Source: Naegleria gruberi
Lineage: Eukaryota
Length of the DNA: 64,000 nucleotides
Reading direction: 5' to 3' (one strand)
NCBI GenBank assembly: GCA_000004985.1
Contig: GG738855.1
Shown here piece after piece: positions 37,205 through 64,000 of the stretch. Every line of letters begins with the position of its first letter. Position 1 is the first letter of the stretch. Position numbers and translations under genes: made by a program. The notes under the pieces were generated by a model that did not search any database, was not told the origin of the DNA, and worked only from the letters and a program-made list of their open reading frames with translations.

Positions 37205-38166
37205 TTTTTTAAATTGGATTTTAAGAAAAAGTACTTTGAATTTTAAAATGGCAGAAAGCTATCCGTTATGACGTGTTTAGTTCATCAATTATGAAATTGT
37301 TACAAGCCCTACTGAGTTCTTAATTCTTCAAATCTTTAATCAACTTGGCGAACTAAAAATTGTAGTTTGGTTTTCTGTAAATCTGTCGGTATTCAAAAGG
37401 AGTTATTAGGACAGGATAACGTACGATAGGATAACATTCTAATACATAGTTAAACCATCTGTCGGTACCTCTTCAACTTTGACACCAAATACACTCTTTA
37501 ATACACAATTGTTTAATCCAATCTCATTGAGAATTTGAATGACCTGATTGCGAAATAAACTTTGCCATCAAAAGCATTAAAATTGATATTGTAAACTATT
37601 ACCAATGTAAACGAATACCCATCAAGCTTATTGAAATACAAATTAAAGCAACCACCATCCAAGCTTATTTGTAATTGACAAGGAATGAGGTACATAAAAG
37701 AGATGAATACATCACCATCCAACAAATCCTTTTAGCAAATTCGGTAGACGCAACGTACAAAAACACTGGACGCCCTCCTCACATGGTAACCAATAACAAC
37801 TCCTCCCTTCTGTCATGTTGTGACTCAGTTGCGTCCTCAGAACACGCCATCACAACATTAAAAAAATTTGCATCACCTATTGTTGTGGGAAGGTTTAACA
37901 CAAAACAACCAACCCAATCTAGAGTACCAATAATTTGTTGTTGGCAGTTAAATTCCGTTGTTGCGCGTTTCATTTTGTGTTGCCGGCAGTCTTGATTTAA
38001 ACAATCACGTGATAGTAACCAGCACGTTCTTAAACGATCTTGAAAAATTTCCGTCCCTATTGTTGAAATTTGTAGTGCAAATAGCTATACAACAACAATA
38101 TATATTACGCAATTATAGTTTAAAATTTAAATAGTTTGTGTGAATAGAATCCCTACTTATATTAAA

Positions 38167-38961
38167 ATGTCAGAGAGTGGTGAAACAAAGAAAAAGTACA
38201 ACACTGGAGGATCTTCTAAAAAGTATTTACCTTCCTTCTTTTCCGAAGCAGACTGCATTGTTGGTTTGCATAATTATGATCCCTTTGATCAACAACCCTT
38301 GCTCACACCTGATGAAGTTGTCATCTCAACAAAGAATTTGGTTTTTGAAAAGTACAATGGAGAGAATCACTTGTTGAGCTCACTCAAGTATACATTGCGT
38401 GTGTGCACTGTGAATTGTGGCTTACCCAATCTATGGGTAAAAATTGAATTAGTATGTGGCAATACCAATACTCCAATTTTTTGTGTTAAAAAGGAAAGAA
38501 AAGGCAAGAGAGGTATTAAAGGTAGATGTTATCAAGAATTTGACGTTTCAAAGGTAAGCTAAACTGAGGTGCATTCCATGTTTAATTAACTCTTCATTTT
38601 CATGATTTCTTTTATTGGATTTTGTTCAACCTGTCAACTTTCTTTATACCATTACAATTTTTTAATACAATGAATTACAGCACGGATACAACAAAGCCAA
38701 GCTGGAGTTTAGGTTCAGAGAAACAAGCAGTGACAATGTAACAGACAAGTTCAGACTCAATGTAAATATTTATAATGACACAACACTTCTCCTCACCTTC
38801 CAGTCACCACGGTTCAGAACTGTTGTACGTTCTCCACAGAGAGGTAAATTCAAGTTACTGAGAGAGCAATTAAACAGTAACAATATTGTTGTACCATATG
38901 AAAAGGCTGATGATGAAGAAGATAATCCAGTGGAGGAAAAGAAAAGGAAAAGAAGTACTAA
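38167..38961 (+). CDS. hypothetical protein of two exons, approximately join(38167..38553,38680..38961). The 3' exon frame could not be checked against the ORF track.
   Basis: The track ORF starts at a GTG and the first ATG is at 38167. A GTAAGC donor follows ...FDVSK, and a 126-nt intron ends at ATTACAG. The downstream frame stays open for about 94 codons. Confidence 0.35.
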
Positions 38962-39080
38962 AAATTAATGTAAATACATAAGAGCTGCAATTGTTTTTCA
39001 AGTGTTAAACCAGCAACAATCATTTTATTTAGACTTAATTGCCATTGATTTAATATGACAATTATTTTTAATTAATGAAT

Positions 39081-39199
39081 GGTTACGGCCATATCACGAT
39101 GAATGCACCTCATCCCGTCCGATTTGAGAAGTTAAGCATCGTCGAGCCACATCAGTACTGAGGTTGGAGACAACTTGGGAACCTCTGGTGCTGTAGTCT
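39081..39199 (+). rRNA. rrn5: 5S ribosomal RNA gene (119 nt), dispersed single copy
   Basis: The 5' end GGTTACGGCCATA and the 3' end GGTGCTGTAGTCT pair as 5S helix I. An internal ...CCGATTTGAGAAGTTAAGC... matches the loop B and helix III region. A T6 run at the 3' end (CTTTTTT) is a Pol III terminator. Confidence 0.85.
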
Positions 39200-39238
39200 T
39201 TTTTAAACAGAACAATAATGATTTAGAATATAATGAAA

Positions 39239-39685
39239 TTAATTTAAAGTTTTAATAAAGTGATGACAACCTAAAATATATCCATTATTCAAATAAACCT
39301 TATGAGCTGCATTTCTTTGATATCCAGAATCCAAATGAACTTGTTTACATCCATTCTCCTTTGCAAAATTATCCACAAAATGTAACAATTGACTTCCCAA
39401 TCCTTTTCCTCTATGAGATTCCTTACAAACCAAATCATCAATATACACAATTTTACCCCATGCAGTTGTTGTCATAATTCTATATCCAACGAGTGCAACA
39501 ATTTCATCACCGATCGAAATTGCATTCAATCTAAAACCATCTTGTTTTTGTTGATGTTCAATTTGCAAAACGAATTGTTGTTCATCTATCAGGTGTGGAC
39601 GTAATTCTTGATACGTTGCCAGACAAGAAGCAATTTGTGATGGTGTGGAAATGCAGAGAATAGTGTGGGAAGATGGTGATGACAT
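39239..39685 (-). CDS. GNAT-family N-acetyltransferase, bacterial-like and intronless
   Basis: 148-aa ORF carrying the acetyl-CoA binding motif QxxGxG/A (ESHRGKGLGSQLL) and GNAT motif B (VHLDSGYQRNAAHKVYLNNGY). Confidence 0.7.
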   Translation of the reverse strand: MSSPSSHTILCISTPSQIASCLATYQELRPHLIDEQQFVLQIEHQQKQDGFRLNAISIGDEIVALVGYRIMTTTAWGKIVYIDDLVCKESHRGKGLGSQLLHFVDNFAKENGCKQVHLDSGYQRNAAHKVYLNNGYILGCHHFIKTLN

Positions 39686-39854
39686 TTTTTTTTGGAGCGG
39701 GCTTATTCAATCTGCAATTTGGAAAATAAATAGTATGTGAAATACTGTGGTCAACTACTGTTGATTCCGTAAAATTGATTATACTCTTCTATTATTAATT
39801 ATATTTATGTAAATATTATAAAATTGTTTACAATAAATTGTAAACCACAAAAAA

Positions 39855-40169
39855 ATGAGAGAAATTATTTCTATTCACGTAGGCAATGCTGGAATCTCTT
39901 TCCAAGAAGTTTTAACAAGTAACTCTATATTTTGCTTTAAAACAAAATTATTTCGCCCAGTTCAATTTGAAGAAATTTCCAAATTTTCTGATTTGATCGT
40001 TTTAGCTTCGGATGATGGAAATTGTAATCAAAATGATGATTTGCAAAGTAAAAGAGGAAAACAAGAGAAGAGACTGAAGGAAAATGAATTTAGAAATAGG
40101 GGATTTTCTCAAGTTGTTATTGATGTTCACAATAGGAAATTTAAATTTATTTATGAAAATAGAAAATGA
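39855..40169 (+). pseudogene. Tubulin N-terminal fragment. Only the first roughly 14 codons (MREIISIHVGNAG) are tubulin-like, and the remainder of the ORF is unrelated.
   Basis: ATGAGAGAAATTATTTCTATTCACGTAGGCAATGCTGGA is about 80 percent identical to the 5' end of the alpha-tubulin gene at 59206. Similarity is lost after codon 14. Confidence 0.35.
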
Positions 40170-40291
40170 AATTTTATTGGAAATATTTCTAGTCAACTAG
40201 ACAATCAATTTTCACAAGATGAATAAGCACAACAGCAAAATCTTCTTCCATGGTTGTGTGAATATTTTGAAAGAAACTTTCAGTAAATTTA

Positions 40292-43012
40292 CTAGTTTAG
40301 GAAAATTTTTACCTTGGATTCAATCTTTCCTCGACATGTTGGACAATTGACTTGATTGGAAATACAATCCAAACAAAATAAGTGTCCACACGGAACACTC
40401 ACATGATCTACCTTATTATCCATACAAATAATACATTCAAATAGTTCTTGTTGATGTAAATGTTCATGATTATTGACTTTGGGTTCTTGTGATTCTAAAT
40501 CTTCATAATATTTAGCAAGTTTTCCAATCAAATCTTGATTTTCCTTTTCCTTCTCCTCCAAGTCACATAAAAATTGATGAGTTTGAGTTTCCAATTGAGT
40601 ACATTCCCTATTAAGTTTTAAAACTTGTTGTTCGAGATTAGTGTTGGAGAGTCGAAGATTTTGAATGATATTCGATTGTTCTACAGTCTTTTTCTTGAGA
40701 TTTTCCTTTTCCAAATCTAATTGCTTGTTAGATTGGGTCATTTCATTAAGTTTAGTTTCTAATTGTTGAACTTTCTTTTCCACTTGTTGACTTTTCTTTG
40801 AATCAATTTCCTTAACTTTCCTTTCGAATTGTCTATTTTCATTTTCCAATCGTGATTTTTCTTGGTGTAAAATTTCCATTCTCTTTTCATACTTTAAATT
40901 GGATGTGATCAACTCTTTGGATATATTTTCTAAATTGAACTTGGATCGATTGAGTTCAAGTGTCAAATCCTTTACTGAAATCTCCAAATTCTGAACTTGA
41001 AATTCTCTGTCTGAAAGAGTTTTCTTCAAATTATCCATTTCAGAGACTTGGTCGATGAGCTGGTGCATTGTATTTGTTTTTCTTTTCAATGCAAATTGTA
41101 ACAATTCCACTTGTTCTCTTAATTCCACTTCTCTTAATGATTCACTTGATGATTCTTTAATTTCTTTCATTGATTGTTCAGGAATTTTCTGTTGTGGAAT
41201 ATCTTTAACAGGTTCTGGATGTTTTTTGCTATAATTTTCCTCACATTTACCAGAGCAACATGAAAACTTTCCACATTTGGTCTTTTGTGTTGTGTATTTT
41301 TGACATTCCACACATTGCCAATCATACAATTCCAAATTATCCTTCAAATTTCTAAAGTGATATCTCAAATCAAAGCAATAAATCTTGTTGCTTAATTTTT
41401 TCAATCTATCCATTCCTCCATAAACATACAATCTCATTTTTGAAACATGATTACAATATCCAGTTAATGCTTCCATATTCTTTGAAGTAGTCAGAACCTT
41501 TTCCCAATTGAATGTATTCAAGTCGAGTGACCAAATTTCATTACTTGCCACTCCATTCATTCCTGTACCCCCATAAAACACTAAAGCCCTGTCCTTTCCA
41601 TTGATTTTCACTTTAGACCAACCACAGTGAGTCATTGGAGGTGGTTTAGTCTTGGAAATGTTAGAAATTTCAATCCATTCGAGAGAAGAACAATCAAATA
41701 GCCACATATCGTTCAAAGAATCCAATCTTGATCCATCTCCACCATATAAAATCAAATATTTTCCATTGCAAATACTAGTCATGCAAGATTTTGATTTGTC
41801 TGAAGGACAAGGTTTGGAAATGTTCAATTTTTGAAGCTTTTCATTCTTGATATCATATCTGAAAAAGGTTCCAACATTTTTACATAATTCACCTGAATAC
41901 TGTCTACCTCCATAAATGTAAATAAATCCAGGAACACTTGCTGCACATGAAAGAACCAAATTAAACTTGAATTTTAACTTTTTCCATTCGAATGTCTTTA
42001 AACAGAGTCGAAAGGATCCATCATTAACTCCATCATCTCCTCCACCAATTAAATAAGCATACTTTTCCTCAAAATCAGAAATGAAAACATGTCCATTTCT
42101 TCTTCCAGCTTCAGGAATTTCTCCACTAACCACTGGAGTAATAAGTATATTCGAGTAAGTATCCAACATGATTAATTCACCAAAAGTTTCACTCATTTGT
42201 CGAGAAATCAAATCCTTTTCTGTATGAGAAATACCTCCCCAATAGAAAATTGAAGAATCATTGTAAATAAATCCAGAATGTAAAACTCTTTCTGTCATTA
42301 CATAATCTGTTACAATAATTTTCCATTTTGGAGGTTCAGTCAACTCTTCTACTTTTTGTTTGTGAGATTCTTTCAGTTGTGAAATAATTTTCTGATCATC
42401 CACAAAAAACAATTCATTAGGATTGTCAATTCTCAATCCTGGCCATTCATCCGAATAGATTTTGTAATATGGATTCTTAATAATGACATATCTACCAACT
42501 CTAAACTCTTCAGATATATTAACTTTTCCATAATTGTAAATAGCTAATTGAACAATATTAGTATTTAAATCAGTCAACCCATTTTCTACAATAGTCATCA
42601 CTGATGTCATTCTAAACACTGGTTGACAAATTCTAGCAAATAAATATTTCCCTCTATTTGGATGATTTGGTGAATTATTTGGTGAGAGTTTCAATTGTTC
42701 AATCTGAATCAATTCCATTCCCTTTACAATTTCCAAATCTTTCACAACCTGACCTTTCCACACTTGTCCTCTATCCTTCCATGCACAAACATCCCCTTCC
42801 GATGGTCGATATTTAATCAATGCTGTTGAATGATGTTTGAGAATGGCTGCTCGTGTAAATCTTTCCTTGGAAACTTGATTTGTAGTTGGAGGTTGAAAGG
42901 CAGTGGCTTGTTCTGTGTAGTTGTGTAGACCGTGATCACCCATTTCGTTTCGCATTTCTGTCATGAGAGCATGATAAACCTCGGGTGAGAGATTGGAGAG
43001 CAAGTCATCCAT
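40292..43012 (-). CDS. Kelch-repeat, B-box-like, coiled-coil and C-terminal RING finger protein (TRIM/LZTR-like putative E3 ligase)
   Basis: It has six Kelch-like blades (xIYVYGG/ILYGG/LVFYGG...W), a CVECQK...CGKFSCCSGKCEENY zinc module, a long heptad region, and a C3HC4 RING (CIICMDNKVDHVSVPCGHLFCLDCISNQVNCPTCRG). The first ATG (MDDLLSNL) is at 43012. The track start at 43135 is a TTG. Confidence 0.7.
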   Translation of the reverse strand: MDDLLSNLSPEVYHALMTEMRNEMGDHGLHNYTEQATAFQPPTTNQVSKERFTRAAILKHHSTALIKYRPSEGDVCAWKDRGQVWKGQVVKDLEIVKGMELIQIEQLKLSPNNSPNHPNRGKYLFARICQPVFRMTSVMTIVENGLTDLNTNIVQLAIYNYGKVNISEEFRVGRYVIIKNPYYKIYSDEWPGLRIDNPNELFFVDDQKIISQLKESHKQKVEELTEPPKWKIIVTDYVMTERVLHSGFIYNDSSIFYWGGISHTEKDLISRQMSETFGELIMLDTYSNILITPVVSGEIPEAGRRNGHVFISDFEEKYAYLIGGGDDGVNDGSFRLCLKTFEWKKLKFKFNLVLSCAASVPGFIYIYGGRQYSGELCKNVGTFFRYDIKNEKLQKLNISKPCPSDKSKSCMTSICNGKYLILYGGDGSRLDSLNDMWLFDCSSLEWIEISNISKTKPPPMTHCGWSKVKINGKDRALVFYGGTGMNGVASNEIWSLDLNTFNWEKVLTTSKNMEALTGYCNHVSKMRLYVYGGMDRLKKLSNKIYCFDLRYHFRNLKDNLELYDWQCVECQKYTTQKTKCGKFSCCSGKCEENYSKKHPEPVKDIPQQKIPEQSMKEIKESSSESLREVELREQVELLQFALKRKTNTMHQLIDQVSEMDNLKKTLSDREFQVQNLEISVKDLTLELNRSKFNLENISKELITSNLKYEKRMEILHQEKSRLENENRQFERKVKEIDSKKSQQVEKKVQQLETKLNEMTQSNKQLDLEKENLKKKTVEQSNIIQNLRLSNTNLEQQVLKLNRECTQLETQTHQFLCDLEEKEKENQDLIGKLAKYYEDLESQEPKVNNHEHLHQQELFECIICMDNKVDHVSVPCGHLFCLDCISNQVNCPTCRGKIESKVKIFLN

Positions 43013-44850: not shown

Positions 44851-44922
44851 TGGCTATTGAGGGGATTGAACCCTCGACCTTCTCCTTACGAGAGAGAAGC
44901 TCTACCACTGAGCTAAACAGCC
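44851..44922 (-). tRNA. tRNA-Thr(CGU): tRNA-Thr (anticodon CGU)
   Basis: The reverse complement folds as a cloverleaf. The acceptor pairs GGCTGTT with AATAGCC. The D-arm is GCTC-AGTGGTA-GAGC. The anticodon loop is CTCGTAA. The T-arm is GAGGG-TTCAATC-CCCTC. A T-run lies 8 nt downstream. Confidence 0.85.
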
Positions 44923-56998: not shown

Positions 56999-57781
56999 AT
57001 GATGAACAACCAAAACACTGACCCATCACTGCAACTTTGTGCAAACCATTTGTTTGACATGATAAATCGGAAGTTGAGTGAATTGAATGCATATGAAGAA
57101 AGATTAAAAAAGAAGGAATTGGAATTAGAAAGGAGAGAAAGGGATTTGGAAAAGTTAATATTATCAAACAATTCACAATCTTCTCCAATAATAAGCGAAA
57201 ATAATATTTTAAATAATTTATCATCATTGGATGCAACTATCACAACAAGGGTTTTTAATGTCACTGAATTTGATACGGAATATACTAGTAACAAATTGAA
57301 AGTACTAAATGACAATAGAACAGTTCAGAAAATTTATAATGATGATTGGCCATGTGCTTGTATGGGGCTGATTCCAGATCACATAATTGATTCTAATAAT
57401 TTTGACATTGTTAGATTTCAAACAAAATTCACCAATAATTGTTGGAATAATTTATTTGTTGGATATGCATTTAAGGATGATTTTTACTTGTCAGGAAAAA
57501 ACTATTCTGTCTGCTCCTATATGATCTGTTTGCATAAATTGGACAACGAAATCAAGATTTACAAATATTGGCCAGAAAATGAGTCGGGTTCTGAAATTGA
57601 AAATTACTATTTTGGAACTAACATTCAAACACTAGAAATGATTCATAACAAGGTAGAGGGTAAAATTTCGTTAATTATTAATGGTCAACCAAATACATTA
57701 TTCAAAGATGAATTGCTGAAATCAACTTTGCATCCTGCTTTTGAATTGAGTCAATATCAAGCTACTTGTGAGCTGATATAA
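56999..57781 (+). CDS. coiled-coil plus SPRY/B30.2-like domain protein
   Basis: It has an N-terminal coiled coil (KKKELELERRERDLEKL) and a C-terminal beta-rich region with a WNNLFVGYAFK...YSVCSYMICLH pattern typical of SPRY. Confidence 0.45.
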   Translation: MMNNQNTDPSLQLCANHLFDMINRKLSELNAYEERLKKKELELERRERDLEKLILSNNSQSSPIISENNILNNLSSLDATITTRVFNVTEFDTEYTSNKLKVLNDNRTVQKIYNDDWPCACMGLIPDHIIDSNNFDIVRFQTKFTNNCWNNLFVGYAFKDDFYLSGKNYSVCSYMICLHKLDNEIKIYKYWPENESGSEIENYYFGTNIQTLEMIHNKVEGKISLIINGQPNTLFKDELLKSTLHPAFELSQYQATCELI

Positions 57782-57844
57782 ATTTTTTCAGATTTGAGAA
57801 TAATCTTAATAATTTTTTGAAAAAGTCTCAATGGAGTAATTAAT

Positions 57845-59212
<1,368 letters not shown>

Positions 59213-59335
59213 TTATTAAGGATTGTATTTTGCAAGTTTCTCTATAATGGAGGACGAGCGATTTTTTTTAATTTTGTTTCTAAGAACAAGCAACCCTGTT
59301 ACGTTATTTAAACAAAACTACAACCTTTTGTAATA

Positions 59336-59426
59336 TTGTGGCGCCAAAATAAAATACAAAAATTTGGCGGGTTCAGTACAATTCCTTATTAATAACATTT
59401 TTACAGTTATTTTGGCGGTAAAATAT
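59336..59426. promoter_or_regulatory. Cluster of three E2F-like GC-rich motifs 130-220 bp upstream of the alpha-tubulin ATG
   Basis: The motifs TGTGGCGCCAAAA, ATTTGGCGGGTT and TTTTGGCGGTAAAA lie in an otherwise roughly 80 percent AT spacer. Each is approximately TTTSGCGS, and the first is palindromic. Confidence 0.4.
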
Positions 59427-59501
59427 GTGAGTACTCATTTCTGTTGTAAACTTTAAAATTAATCCAAAAAATCTTTCCAATGTACTATTGTAATAAGTTA
59501 A

Positions 59502-61472
59502 CTATTTATTATTATTATTATTGTTATTGTTATTATTATTGGCATTATTCCTATTGTTTGGATTATTCATAAGGTTCATACCACCATTTACCATATACAT
59601 TGGTTGATTGAAAGGAAGATTTGGCATGTTTGGCATATTTGGCATGTTTGCCATGTTGAATGGCATAACAAAATTATATGGAAATGGCATTGGATTGGAC
59701 AAGATTAATCCTTGTGTATTTTGATAACCAGGTATTGTAGTTGGCACTGTTGGTGCTGTGGGAGGGTTCAAGTTTGGTGGTAATGCTTGAGATGGTTGTG
59801 GTTGTGTTGGTGGTGGCTTTTCTGAACATTTTTCAATCAGTTCAGTACCTATTGGGAATGATACAAAAACAGGTTCAGAGGCAATGGTGTTGGCGGTGAT
59901 GGTTTCCTGTTCCTTTGTTTTATCAAAGTATATCTTCAAGTATTGATAAGGGAATAGTAATAGGGATGACTTGTCATCAATTGGAGCAGTAATGAAATAT
60001 TTCTTCTTGGCCATATTGTTCAATAGAGTTGGAATTTTAGTTGCCTGGGTTGACGGTGTTAATTTCCATAAATGAACTTTCATATCCTTCTTTACAAGAT
60101 TTGCAATTATACTAGTTTTAAGGGACATGAGATTCTTGGTAATCTTGATATCTTTTGGCCATTTACTGGAATCAACAACAATTTCACTTTTAGCATAACC
60201 TTCCAAATGTCCAATAATAGAGTTAGGAGAATCAATACTGAATGTTAATTTGTGAATTTGTACATGGTTAGGACCAATTGTGTAGTCATTAATAGTTTTG
60301 GCAGCAGTACTAGATGTAGAATTTCCACTAGGTGTGCTTCCTGTAGAATTTGGAGTTGAAGTAGTTCCAGATGTGGTTGAATTGGTAGGAGTACTTCCAT
60401 TTGTTGGAGTTGTGGTAGTTGATTGATTGTTGGGAGTGGTTACAGTGGTTGGAGGTGTGGTTGAGGTATTATTGGTTGCTGAGCTAACTGTAGTTGGTGC
60501 AGTACTTGGAGCCAGAAAGCTTGGTGGTGGAGTTGTGACAGTTGTAATGACAGGAGGAATTACAACACCTTTAGCAACACTGGCTTTTGGTGGCAACTTT
60601 GGAGTAACATCCTTTTCTGTTTTGATATGGGTTGTGTTGGAGGCATTTGTGTTGATGCTACTATTGTTGGTATTAGCGCTGGCATTACTGTTTGAATCAT
60701 CATTCTTTTCATTCTTGTCATTCTTCTCCAAAGGTTGCAGTTTGAGTTTGTCTTTTTCAACTCCTCTCAAATCTATCAAAAGACCATATTCTGTATTGGG
60801 ATAATGTAAATTCATAGCATCTAGAATGAGTCTCGATAATCCTTCACTAATACTGAAAGGATCTGTAGAATTACTTGTGTTAGAGGTAACCATTGATTGT
60901 GGATCTAGCTTGCAAGCCTCTGTTATTTTTTTCCATTTTCTTGAAATGCTAGGGGAGAGTATTGAGATAATAAGACCCTTCTTGACCATATCTTTTACAA
61001 TTTCCATTGCATTCTTTCCAACATACATTCCATTCAAAATGCAAGGGTGCTCTGATGGAGTGGATGAACAAATCATCACATACTTTAAAGCATCCTTGTC
61101 CCATTCCAAATCAGTGATTGAAGTTGCAAGAGCTTCACTGACACAACTATGGGCAATACCACCAGCATAGAATTTTTCCTTCAATCCTTCCAAAATTTGG
61201 TAAAATGTGGAATAATCTTTAATGAAAGGAATTACCTTTACCAAAAAATCACCATTTGGTGGATAATTTTGAAATAAAACAGCAGAAAATTCCGTATTCT
61301 TATTTCTCAAATACAACATGTAGGGCACAATGACTCTGTTTAAAAAGTAGGCAAAATATGTCTTCATTCCTGTTGTTGTGTCGATTAAAATACATATTTG
61401 TTTAGGTTGATTATCAGATGGGCCATGTGCAGAAGATGATTTGGGAATTGAACCCGATCTATTACTTAGCAT
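59502..61472 (-). CDS. MED25: Mediator subunit MED25-like protein (N-terminal vWA-like domain, S/T-rich linker, ACID/PTOV-like domain, Pro-rich and poly-N C-terminus)
   Basis: The vWA blocks ICILIDTTTGMKTYFAYF, FYAGGIAHSCVSEALATSI, YVMICSSTPSE and GLIISILSPSI align in order with the MED25 vWA domain. The poly-N tail is encoded by (AAT/AAC)n. Confidence 0.55.
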   Translation of the reverse strand: MLSNRSGSIPKSSSAHGPSDNQPKQICILIDTTTGMKTYFAYFLNRVIVPYMLYLRNKNTEFSAVLFQNYPPNGDFLVKVIPFIKDYSTFYQILEGLKEKFYAGGIAHSCVSEALATSITDLEWDKDALKYVMICSSTPSEHPCILNGMYVGKNAMEIVKDMVKKGLIISILSPSISRKWKKITEACKLDPQSMVTSNTSNSTDPFSISEGLSRLILDAMNLHYPNTEYGLLIDLRGVEKDKLKLQPLEKNDKNEKNDDSNSNASANTNNSSINTNASNTTHIKTEKDVTPKLPPKASVAKGVVIPPVITTVTTPPPSFLAPSTAPTTVSSATNNTSTTPPTTVTTPNNQSTTTTPTNGSTPTNSTTSGTTSTPNSTGSTPSGNSTSSTAAKTINDYTIGPNHVQIHKLTFSIDSPNSIIGHLEGYAKSEIVVDSSKWPKDIKITKNLMSLKTSIIANLVKKDMKVHLWKLTPSTQATKIPTLLNNMAKKKYFITAPIDDKSSLLLFPYQYLKIYFDKTKEQETITANTIASEPVFVSFPIGTELIEKCSEKPPPTQPQPSQALPPNLNPPTAPTVPTTIPGYQNTQGLILSNPMPFPYNFVMPFNMANMPNMPNMPNLPFNQPMYMVNGGMNLMNNPNNRNNANNNNNNNNNNNK

Positions 61473-61598
61473 GTTATTGTGTTGTTATGATGAGAAGAAA
61501 AAATTATTCTTCTTTCTGCTCCGATTCGTGATTAAAAAAAATATCCAACAACAAGGATGTAATAATTTAAATTAGTTAATTTTTTTTGAATGTTATTT

Positions 61599-62378
61599 TT
61601 AATTTTGGTGCAAAACACTTGAGGCTTTGAGCAATTCATTCAACTTTTCTTCATCGTCCTCCTCTTCTTGTCTTCTTCGAGCTTGTTCTTCCTTCTTATT
61701 CTTTTGAGTTTCTTCCCAAACAGCTGCCCACATTTCCATACACTTACTGTGATAAAATAGTTGAGAATGAACAAACTCTTCAAATACTGTCCTCAAATCT
61801 CCAAGTCCTTCGTAGAGCTTTTTTTTCAATCCTCTATTTTCTCTAAGTTCTCTAATTTGATCATCTACAGATGTTGGCACCTTTCTTCTCTTTTTAATAT
61901 TCTTTTTTTGAGTTTTCACATATTCTGTATTGAAATCTCTTATGAGCTTCCATGTTTTTGAGAAACTCTCTATATCATTCGATTGTAATCTGTCAATTCG
62001 TTCTTGAAGAATAACATTTTGATTATTTGTATAAATGAATCCTTGGTGAAGAATAGCAAGAAATGTTTGTAAATCCTTATGATCCTTAACGTCAAGAGTT
62101 GATATTTTTTCATCGAGTGGGAGAAGAGACTTGTTGACAGTTTGTAAGCTCTTCTCATATTCTCTCAACTGAAATTTAAAAAAGTCAGCAAAGTCTAGCA
62201 CCTTCGTTCCTCTCTCCAGAGACTGTGAGGCGTAAAAGAGCATTGAATCGGAAGAGTTGGGATTAAGTGATGTTCCTAACGATTGTTGAAGTTGTTTTAG
62301 AGAATCATCAGAAGATCCTTGTGTTGGCATTCCACTAAGAGGAGATATTGGTGTTTTTGGTGTTGTTGTTCCTAACAT
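61599..62378 (-). CDS. hypothetical helical protein
   Basis: 259-aa ORF with an ATG start. It is predicted to be alpha-helical, with a basic KKNIKKRRK patch and an acidic C-terminus. Confidence 0.4.
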   Translation of the reverse strand: MLGTTTPKTPISPLSGMPTQGSSDDSLKQLQQSLGTSLNPNSSDSMLFYASQSLERGTKVLDFADFFKFQLREYEKSLQTVNKSLLPLDEKISTLDVKDHKDLQTFLAILHQGFIYTNNQNVILQERIDRLQSNDIESFSKTWKLIRDFNTEYVKTQKKNIKKRRKVPTSVDDQIRELRENRGLKKKLYEGLGDLRTVFEEFVHSQLFYHSKCMEMWAAVWEETQKNKKEEQARRRQEEEDDEEKLNELLKASSVLHQN

Positions 62379-62437
62379 TTTATGTACAATAAATAATAAT
62401 AAGGGAGTTGGTTCTTTTTTTTTAAAAAATGTAACAC

Positions 62438-62480
62438 TGTTGGCGCCAATAATTATGTATAATTTGGCGCCAAATTTACA
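62438..62480. promoter_or_regulatory. Two palindromic GGCGCC motifs (TGTTGGCGCCAATAAT and AATTTGGCGCCAAATTT) 60-100 bp upstream of the gene starting at 62378
   Basis: Direct observation. The second motif is a 17-nt perfect palindrome. Confidence 0.4.
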
Positions 62481-62598
62481 TCTTATTTGAATAATAGAAA
62501 CGAGTGTTCACTACAACATTAACTCTGTTAATGTCAACAGTTAAATCAATAAGAATTGCATCTCAGTTGATTTGTAAATTTCAATTTAAGTTAAAGAA

Positions 62599-62672
62599 TG
62601 GCTACGGCCATATCACGATGAATGCACCTCATCCCGATTTGAGACAACTTGGGAACCTGTGGTGCTGTAGTC
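62599..62672 (+). pseudogene. 5S rRNA pseudogene, 74 nt, with a 45-nt internal deletion
   Basis: Its 5' 37 nt and 3' 29 nt are near-identical to the 5S gene at 39081, with 2 substitutions. The middle segment ...TCCGATTTGAGAAGTTAAGCATCGTCGAGCCACATCAGTACTGAGGTTGGAGA is replaced by ATTTGAGA, and the junction lies within a TTGAGA direct repeat. The T-run is retained. Confidence 0.6.
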
Positions 62673-62777
62673 TTTTATCATAATCATCTCTAATATGACT
62701 GATTAAGGTCAACAGTAAGCTAAGTGCAATTCGTTTATTTTCCTATTAACATAGTGAAAGTCCTATTAGGTTGGATT

Positions 62778-64000
62778 TTAAAGACCAGTCGGATAGGTTT
62801 CTTCAAGTCGCTTTTTAGCCCATTGATGTTGCATATCTATTGGATGGACTGCAGTGGTGGTGTTGAAATGAATAAGGGCATCAAATTGCTTTGCGACCTT
62901 TGCTTCAAAGTAATGAGATTGTCTCTCAGTTTTCGGTCTGTAAATAACACCAATAGCTCTTTCTAGTCTCTCCTTTTCTAATTCCCTTCTCAAAGTTGCA
63001 TTAGTTTCAACACTTGGATCCTTGCTTTTAAATAATAGCATGTAGTCTTTGGTCTTTTGACCGATTGTTGCATCATGAAGCAATTCTTCAATTGAATCCT
63101 TCATACCAGGGTTGACACGTTTATATTCAGGATCTTGATTCCATTTATCAGCAGCTGTTACACTTCCATTAAATGTGGAAAACCCAACAATGTAGACATC
63201 ATCTGGAAAGTTTTCTCTGCACTTTCTTCCAATGTTAATTTCATGGCCCTTATCATAGATACTATCTGTTTGTGAGGCATCTCCAACATGAGAATTGTGA
63301 GCAAACACAATAACTTTGGCCTCTTTTCCATAGCTATTGGAGTAATATTTCATAATCTCAACCAGTGTCTCAAAGAAGTGCTCATCCCGAATATTCCAAC
63401 TTCCATCCACAAACATAACTCTATAATAATGCTCTGCATTCTTTACAACCATTGCATTTTGAATGGCATTGAAGAGATGGTCCTTTTCTTGTAATTCCTT
63501 TGTTTCTCTATTCTGCAAATCCAATAATACCTGCATTACCTTTTCTTGACATGATCCACCAATTACTTTTCTTATTGGCTCCTTCTTTTTGTAATTTTTC
63601 ATGCACTCATATTGCTCCCTCACATGTTTAGCACCTTCATGATCACCAATTGATTCGAAATATTCGAGAACGACCCTCATACTTCTGTCACTACTATACA
63701 AATCAAGACCGTACAATCCAACCATATCCTTCTCCTTATTGAATTGTGTATTATACTCCCTCAGCCACTCCACAAGATTGAGAGTGGGAACATTTCTCCA
63801 CATCCAAGTTGGGAATCGTTTAAATCCACTCAGTGAATCAACACCAGTGCAATCAATTTGGTGCTTGATAAATTCATTCACCCTAGAAGTATCGGGAAAG
63901 TCAGCCTCAAGGCAAATACAATTGAAACCCTTCTCTGATATTAGACGCTTTGTAATGGCTGCTCTGTGTTCGTAGAATTCATGTGTGCCATGAGATGCCT
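62778..64000 (-). CDS. erythromycin esterase (EreA/EreB, PF05139) family protein, 5' end beyond the window
   Basis: It has IVFAHNSHVGDA (the HNSH motif). The frame upstream of the track start at 63881, which is a GTG, continues open to the window edge. That upstream frame encodes ...ASHGTHEFYEHRAAITKRLISEKGFNCICLEADFPDTSR, which contains the EATHGTHEF-type N-terminal motif. Confidence 0.7.
   Translation of the reverse strand, partial: ASHGTHEFYEHRAAITKRLISEKGFNCICLEADFPDTSRVNEFIKHQIDCTGVDSLSGFKRFPTWMWRNVPTLNLVEWLREYNTQFNKEKDMVGLYGLDLYSSDRSMRVVLEYFESIGDHEGAKHVREQYECMKNYKKKEPIRKVIGGSCQEKVMQVLLDLQNRETKELQEKDHLFNAIQNAMVVKNAEHYYRVMFVDGSWNIRDEHFFETLVEIMKYYSNSYGKEAKVIVFAHNSHVGDASQTDSIYDKGHEINIGRKCRENFPDDVYIVGFSTFNGSVTAADKWNQDPEYKRVNPGMKDSIEELLHDATIGQKTKDYMLLFKSKDPSVETNATLRRELEKERLERAIGVIYRPKTERQSHYFEAKVAKQFDALIHFNTTTAVHPIDMQHQWAKKRLEETYPTGL

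Follow-up and report, generated by a model that had tools for sequence, protein, structure and literature searches.

A 74-nt Internally Deleted 5S rRNA Gene Copy in Naegleria gruberi

Introduction

The closest described relatives of the sequence reported here are the 5S rRNA genes of Naegleria gruberi itself, which, in the passages of PMC3369914 that deal with Naegleria, number about 279, are in some cases tandem, are not linked to the rDNA units, and have T-run terminators; box A, the intermediate element, and box C form their predicted internal control region, and a TATA box is predicted upstream of them (PMC3369914). According to the same passages, neither BLASTp nor PSI-BLAST recovered TFIIIA from N. 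gruberi; defective copies are not discussed in the comparison section or in the passages on Naegleria, TFIIIA, and the internal control region (PMC3369914). In a family of the size given there, an occasional dead copy is to be expected.

Dispersed 5S families with pseudogenes and birth-and-death evolution occur in filamentous fungi and fission yeasts, an oocyte 5S pseudogene is known from Xenopus, and some 5S copies in Xenopus, Neurospora, and Aspergillus carry disabling truncations or deletions. For the centromeric 5S genes of fission yeast, “relatively frequent gain and loss” has been described (10.1101/2022.12.06.519325). Sequences derived from 5S genes also spread in genomes, as SINE3 and other 5S rRNA-derived SINEs and as Cassandra TRIMs (PMC10946416); these multi-copy elements retain the 5S internal promoter, to which a body and tail or an LTR have been added.

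Here we describe a 74-nt 5S-derived copy in a 64,000-nt stretch of N. gruberi DNA (hereafter the window), which is AT-rich (34% G+C) and densely packed with mostly intronless ORFs. The copy derives from the same gene as the N. gruberi 5S family characterized in the Naegleria passages of PMC3369914; unlike the members of that family, it would not be counted as a gene, since it lies below the Rfam threshold and has neither box A nor the intermediate element. With the dispersed 5S families of other eukaryotes it shares a position among protein-coding genes, flanks unrelated to those of another copy, and gain or loss between close relatives, but it is damaged internally, without 3′ truncation and with both ends still present, and the lesion can be dated as very recent from a near-identical strain with an intact 3′ part. 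In contrast to 5S-derived SINEs and Cassandra elements, it is without the promoter and without a tail, and it occurs once in the window, with no match to its junction in JGI metagenome contigs. The 74-nt sequence is an ordinary, young 5S pseudogene and no new kind of element.

Results

A 74-nt 5S Copy with Both Ends Kept

At gathering thresholds, Rfam reports one 5S gene in the window, an intact copy that matches the full model (RF00001) at 98.8 bits (E 2.4e-20). Under permissive thresholds, a second stretch aligns end to end with the same model at 19.4 bits (E 0.19), which is below the gathering score of 38 bits.

39081–39199, plus strand: intact 119-nt 5S rRNA gene, the reference copy, followed by a T6 run (Rfam RF00001)
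62600–62673, plus strand: internally deleted 5S rRNA gene copy (pseudogene), 74 nt (BLAST to the intact copy, Rfam 5S, enumeration of deletions)

In a BLAST comparison within the window, nt 4–37 of the intact copy match the 74-nt copy at 100% identity (E 2.5e-14) and nt 87–119 match it at 97% (E 2.4e-11), while nt 39–49 correspond to 62634–62644 in an 11-nt exact match across the junction; the matches of both halves, together with the junction match, place the 5S origin of the stretch beyond chance. The first-pass annotation had recognized a 5S copy here, an identification that stands, at coordinates one base off (62599–62672, in place of 62600–62673). It had also described a disabled gene copy with both ends and the terminator kept; the homology and the disabling lesion bear out the former, and the ends and the TTTT run at 62673–62676 are indeed present. 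Relative to the intact copy, 45 nt are missing in total. The parts of the copy and the stretch immediately upstream are as follows.

62589–62599, plus strand: proximal upstream stretch AGTTAAAGAAT, 9/11 identical in a position-anchored comparison to AATTAATGAAT, which precedes the intact copy
62600–62636, plus strand: 5S nt 1–37 (5′ strands of helix I and helices II/III, start of loop C); the C3 variant lies at 62602 (BLAST, enumeration)
62634–62636, plus strand: junction 1, where the 4-nt deletion (TCCG, nt 38–41 or equivalent) has its CCG microhomology (enumeration)
62637–62644, plus strand: 5S nt 42–49 (ATTTGAGA), of which the last four bases, GAGA at 62641–62644, are the microhomology of junction 2 (BLAST, enumeration)
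62645–62673, plus strand: 5S nt 91–119 (3′ part of the box C equivalent, 3′ strand of helix I), with the G105 variant at 62659
62673–62676, plus strand: TTTT, a T-run resembling a Pol III terminator; the intact copy has a longer one, T6 (sequence)

The stretch at 62589–62599 is a possible conserved element proximal to the start site, judging from its similarity to the sequence before the intact copy. The 5S gene of N. fowleri has AGAGT at −5 to −1.

Two Deletions at Short Direct Repeats

All derivations of the 74-mer from the 119-mer were enumerated exhaustively. A model with two deletions, of 4 nt and 41 nt, leaves two mismatches, T3C (62602) and C105G (62659); a single 45-nt deletion, which leaves four at best, was rejected. 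Four placements of the 4-nt deletion are equivalent (nt 35–38 to nt 38–41), with a 3-nt microhomology, CCG, and the affected TCCG is present both in the intact N. gruberi copy and in the 5S gene of N. fowleri. For the 41-nt deletion, five placements (nt 46–86 to nt 50–90) are equivalent, with a 4-nt microhomology, GAGA; this deletion joins nt 49 to nt 91, giving the junction sequence CCCGATTTGAGACAACTT. The “precise 45-nt deletion between TTGAGA repeats” of the first-pass annotation is thus correct in its total, but neither the single event nor the 6-nt repeat survives the enumeration: TTGAGA occurs once in the intact 5S gene, and its downstream partner is TTGGAGA, leaving GAGA as the exact repeat. 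Its proposal that the junction falls within a direct repeat, pointing to slippage or microhomology, is upheld as far as the endpoints do lie in short direct repeats, although the repeat at the longer deletion is 4 nt and not 6 nt in length.

Microhomology-mediated deletion or slippage classically leaves endpoints that cannot be placed uniquely within a short exact repeat, of which one copy is kept, and the CCG and GAGA junctions show both traits. By our own estimate, the chance of a microhomology of at least 4 nt at random endpoints is ∼1.5%, which makes slippage or microhomology-mediated repair a reasonable cause. The locus departs from the classic case in having two close deletions instead of one and no predicted hairpin in the deleted interval; DNA folds of that interval, on both strands, were no better than those of shuffles, and hairpin-assisted slippage was rejected for this reason.

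The two differences that remain, C3 and G105, are both found in the N. fowleri 5S gene (L005:6–124), and G105 also in the allele of a near-identical strain (contig L004, described below), which makes the parent a normal 5S variant. In the intact copy at 39081, C70 and C105 form a mismatch in helix V (window positions 39150 and 39185; NC flags in cmscan), and the G105 of the 74-nt copy, the L004 allele, and N. fowleri would restore pairing with C70, which makes the reference copy at 39081 itself a minor variant.

The Same Locus in Related Strains and Species

The 74-nt copy lies between two protein-coding genes, whose products (P0001 and P0121) are each 100% identical to entries named “predicted protein [Naegleria gruberi],” an identity that marks the window as nuclear DNA of this species.

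61599–62378, minus strand: 259-aa gene (protein P0121)
62778–63881, minus strand: erythromycin-esterase family gene (PF05139; protein P0001), which runs on beyond 64000

An exact-protein look-up with the esterase protein led to contig L004, from a metagenome assembly (ENA ERZ929261, run ERR1078381), which is 98–99% identical to the window. L004 carries undeleted 5S nt 50–119 on the same strand at the same locus, and the contig ends at nt 50. The match to the Rfam 5S model is 5′-truncated and scores 41.7 bits; the distance from the 5S sequence to the esterase stop codon is 106 nt, versus 104 nt in the window, and the L004 5S shares with the 74-nt copy both G105 and the terminator context TTTTATCAT. 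The assembly was made at k = 127, so that each k-mer of this part of the 5S sequence is anchored in locus-specific flank. Over 1366 nt, the window and L004 differ by 24 mismatches and 2 gaps, including a diverged block of ∼25 nt just 3′ of the 5S sequence. In a near-identical strain or haplotype, the locus holds a normal 5S gene, at least in its 3′ 70 nt, and the presence of undeleted nt 50–119 in the same flank indicates that the deletion in the window is recent and arose in place.

More distant Naegleria have no 5S gene here. In contig L011 (ERZ27254845; ∼76% identical DNA), the order of the esterase and 259-aa genes is kept, and the 108-nt syntenic spacer between them contains no 5S sequence; in N. 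fowleri and N. lovaniensis, the orthologue of the 259-aa gene adjoins an enkurin gene, and no 5S gene lies beside it. These contexts point to a 5S gene at the 62600 site that is specific to the N. gruberi lineage, which fits the gain-and-loss dynamics of dispersed 5S families. The esterase paralogue loci of N. fowleri (L005–L007) were rejected as comparators, as they are not syntenic. At the edge of one of these unrelated loci lies an N. fowleri 5S rRNA gene (L005:6–124, 99.9 bits); it adjoins a protein kinase gene, an indication that 5S genes are dispersed among protein-coding genes in N. fowleri too.

Both assemblies catalogued as metagenomes contain Naegleria DNA and can be used as comparators for the N. 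gruberi genome. The contigs from ERZ929261/ERR1078381 (L001, L003, and L004) are Naegleria nuclear DNA, 98–99.4% identical to the window, from an N. gruberi-like strain; those from ERZ27254845 (L002 and L011) belong to another Naegleria species, L011 being 76% identical and the alpha-tubulin gene on L002 95% identical. Neither a locus-specific 37-mer nor the 26-nt junction had any match in JGI metagenome contigs, collections that may simply lack N. gruberi, and exact-protein look-ups of the 259-aa protein and of the GNAT protein beside the intact 5S gene returned no record.

Loss of Predicted Promoter Elements and of the 5S Fold

Promoter elements were mapped with the consensus quoted in the Naegleria-related passages of PMC3369914. 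Box A is nt 50–64 of the intact copy (AGTTAAGC...), which fits that consensus, and the box C equivalent is at about nt 80–98 (GAGGTTGGAGACAACTTGG). The deletion takes out box A and the intermediate element completely, but of box C only the 5′ 7–11 nt. The remainder of box C, GAGACAACTTGG, survives at about +42 to +53, displaced 45 nt toward the start, and the junction recreates TTTGAGACAACTTGG, likewise 45 nt nearer to the start. The first-pass annotation had named box C as the element lost; this is true of its 5′ 7–11 nt, but most of box C is kept, and box A and the intermediate element make up the loss. Its broader statement that the segment with the internal control region is missing holds for most of that predicted region; its argument from TFIIIA binding is, given the negative TFIIIA searches in PMC3369914, one borrowed from other eukaryotes.

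The set of elements of a type-1 Pol III promoter (box A, intermediate element, and box C, at about +50 to +97) is thus not present in the 74-nt copy, and with most of the predicted internal control region lost, the copy would probably not function as a type-1 Pol III gene. The AT-rich upstream region, the start-proximal motif, and the T4 run are all intact, and with the motif and the T-run in place, some residual transcription may occur. Going by these elements, the copy is most likely silent, or weakly and aberrantly transcribed.

Any RNA made from it would be altered just as severely. Both strands of helix I, GGCUACGGC and GCUGUAGUC, are kept and are paired in the Rfam alignment; the free minimum-energy fold of the 74-nt RNA does not use helix I. 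The 3′ strands of helices II/III and the 5′ strands of helices IV/V are gone, nt 50–90 or equivalent being missing, so that helices II–V with loops C, D, and E are not retained, and loop E and the L5-binding region are absent. Since helices II–V cannot form and loop E and the L5-binding region are gone, such an RNA could not serve as ribosomal 5S RNA; of the canonical structure, helix I alone is kept. The predicted fold has an energy of −25.8 kcal/mol (z = −2.78), a stability reached by only 1 of 200 shuffles.

A 14-nt Direct Repeat around the Copy

A repeat search, evaluated against dinucleotide shuffles, identified a pair of 14-nt direct repeats on either side of the 74-nt copy.

62528–62541, plus strand: upstream copy of the 14-nt direct repeat, TTAATGTCAACAGT
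62703–62716, plus strand: downstream copy, TTAAGGTCAACAGT, also present in L004

The two copies are identical at 13 of 14 positions, and such a pair arose in 3 of 500 dinucleotide shuffles. They enclose the 5S sequence with 58 nt upstream and 29 nt downstream, and no equivalent repeat surrounds the intact copy at 39081. The repeat might be a footprint of the arrival, by insertion, of a 5S unit. No A-tail or LINE-like tail is present in the sequence at the 74-nt copy, and the combination of a start at +1, a tail, and a target-site duplication that characterizes a retro-copy or SINE is not found here. BLAST returned no further copies of the 74-nt form in the 64-kb window.

Flanks of the Two 5S Loci

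The flanks of the two 5S loci are unrelated. Local alignments of the intervals −120 to −1, −1500 to −121, and +1 to +150 and beyond were no better than those of shuffles, as was a gapped local alignment of the 120 nt upstream of both copies, and no collinear similarity extends beyond the 5S gene. The first-pass annotation had suggested that the two loci, each within a few kilobases of tubulin-related sequence, stem from an old segmental duplication, and had proposed a dot-plot to look for wider duplicated flanks. The corresponding comparison, done by BLAST (38–41 versus 57–64 kb), gave none: between 38001–41000 and 57001–64000, only the pieces of the 5S genes match, together with an opposite-strand match of 41 nt to a tubulin start (39852–39892 against the start codon region of the alpha-tubulin gene, 59209–59169; 83% identity). 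The supposed tubulin fragment at 39855 shrinks to 14 tubulin-like residues of a short ORF.

39855–40169, plus strand: 104-aa ORF whose N-terminus, MREIISIHVGNAGI, is tubulin-like (10/14 residues identical to the start of alpha-tubulin) and whose remainder is unrelated; no Pfam match

From its sequence, this ORF would be either a tiny fragment of a tubulin gene or the first exon of something else. It is on the same strand as the intact 5S gene, 650 nt downstream of it, whereas the alpha-tubulin gene proper lies 3.4 kb upstream of the deleted copy, in the opposite orientation. The intervening genes differ as well: the intact 5S gene is followed by a GNAT acetyltransferase gene, while a Med25-VWA gene and the 259-aa gene lie between the alpha-tubulin gene and the deleted copy.

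Discussion

Origin of the 74-nt Copy

We consider it very probable that the 74-nt copy is a dispersed N. gruberi 5S gene disabled in place by two small deletions flanked by microhomology. A 5S gene sitting between the erythromycin-esterase-like gene and the 259-aa gene would have lost 4 nt in place at the CCG repeat in loop C, and 41 nt, again in place, at the GAGA repeat, so that nt 49 became joined to nt 91; the cause would most likely be replication slippage or microhomology-mediated end joining, possibly acting in one complex event. The reverse history, in which the deletion is ancestral and gene conversion from another 5S copy restored the sequence in the L004 lineage, is less parsimonious.

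The deletion could also be an artefact of sequencing, cloning, or assembly, the real locus being full-length and the deletion stemming from a clone or from consensus building. Deletions flanked by short repeats are typical of cloning in E. coli, and an independent assembly of a near-identical strain has the undeleted 3′ 70 nt at this very locus; yet a deletion confined to one clone seldom persists in a multi-clone consensus, and the window and L004 differ elsewhere over the aligned 1366 nt, as different haplotypes or strains would, so that a real polymorphism is unsurprising. We regard an artefact as unlikely. That the copy is instead a functional small RNA derived from 5S, transcribed by Pol III from upstream elements, with a new stable hairpin and a role of its own, seems to us very unlikely. 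Such a reading can draw on the start-proximal motif shared with the intact copy, the retained T4 terminator, the low predicted folding energy, and the combination, in the Naegleria passages of PMC3369914, of no TFIIIA found and a TATA box predicted upstream of 5S genes, so that upstream elements may matter. The folding energy, however, can be traced to chance complementarity between the regions of loop C and helix IV that the deletion brought together; moreover, the form is single-copy in the window, its junction is absent from JGI metagenome contigs, the orthologous L004 allele of a near-identical strain is undeleted, and there is no conservation, the 76% identical L011 having no 5S at the locus.

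An origin as a retro-copy of 5S RNA, which the first-pass annotation had offered as an alternative, or as a 5S-derived SINE-like mobile element, would account for the 14-nt repeat, readable as a target-site duplication, and for the spacer without 5S in L011, from which it follows that the gene either arrived here or was lost there. It meets the difficulty that a retro-copied Pol III transcript would not carry the 58 nt and 29 nt of flank that the repeats bracket, and that the undeleted 5S in the same flank of L004 places the internal deletion later than any arrival, as a change in place; nor is there the expected tail, the internal promoter that 5S-derived SINEs need is mostly gone, and neither the window nor the JGI metagenomes yielded more copies. 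We hold this origin to be extremely unlikely, and an old segmental duplication, of which the two 5S loci and their tubulin-like neighbors would be the remains, to be scarcely credible. Tubulin-like sequence does lie within a few kilobases of both 5S loci, with the 41-nt match and the shared N-terminal residues, but flank alignments do not rise above shuffles in any interval compared, the tubulin-related sequences differ in strand and distance, the genes in between are unrelated, and the 5S gene at 62600 appears lineage-specific, with none in L011. A more far-reaching possibility, to which we give a very small chance, is that the copy yields a Pol III-made small RNA with a new hairpin, that the 14-nt repeats mark a mobile DNA “5S cassette” consisting of the gene and ∼60 nt of promoter, or both; such a cassette, if real, would explain the dispersal of the ∼279 5S copies in Naegleria.

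Significance

As an in-place deletion pseudogene, the 74-nt copy matters little by itself, being one decayed copy among about 279 genes. In annotation, it ought to be treated as a pseudogene, by masking or flagging; at the gathering threshold, Rfam already passes over it. It offers a clean and datable case of microhomology-associated deletion in a heterolobosean genome, with an intact allele (nt 50–119 seen) that still segregates, or exists, in a near-identical strain. Taken with the empty site in L011, it implies that dispersed 5S genes of Naegleria turn over quickly, and this turnover could be used for strain markers or for a genome-wide study of 5S gene movement.

Neighboring Genes and Other Observations

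One tRNA gene was found in the window at Rfam gathering thresholds, 5.6 kb from the intact 5S gene.

44851–44922, minus strand: tRNA-Thr (CGU)

Matches of the spacer to mir-5727, TtnuHACA17, rliB, and TeloSII (Rfam) were far below threshold and were rejected as chance.

The best matches of the esterase (62778–63881) outside Naegleria and Willaertia are mostly unnamed metagenome proteins, the few named ones coming from bdelloid rotifers and bacteria, all at about 40–45% identity; this distribution suggests that the gene was acquired horizontally.

The spacer upstream of the 259-aa gene contains two exact TTGGCGCCAA palindromes (62440–62449 and 62464–62473), 24 nt apart and 60–95 nt upstream of the ATG of this minus-strand gene. 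The second of them reads TTTGGCGCCAAA, which is the textbook E2F site. Both palindromes are conserved in the 76% identical species (L011:308–345), where the other spacer sequence is not alignable, and they are likely to represent an E2F/DP-type promoter element of a Naegleria-specific gene.
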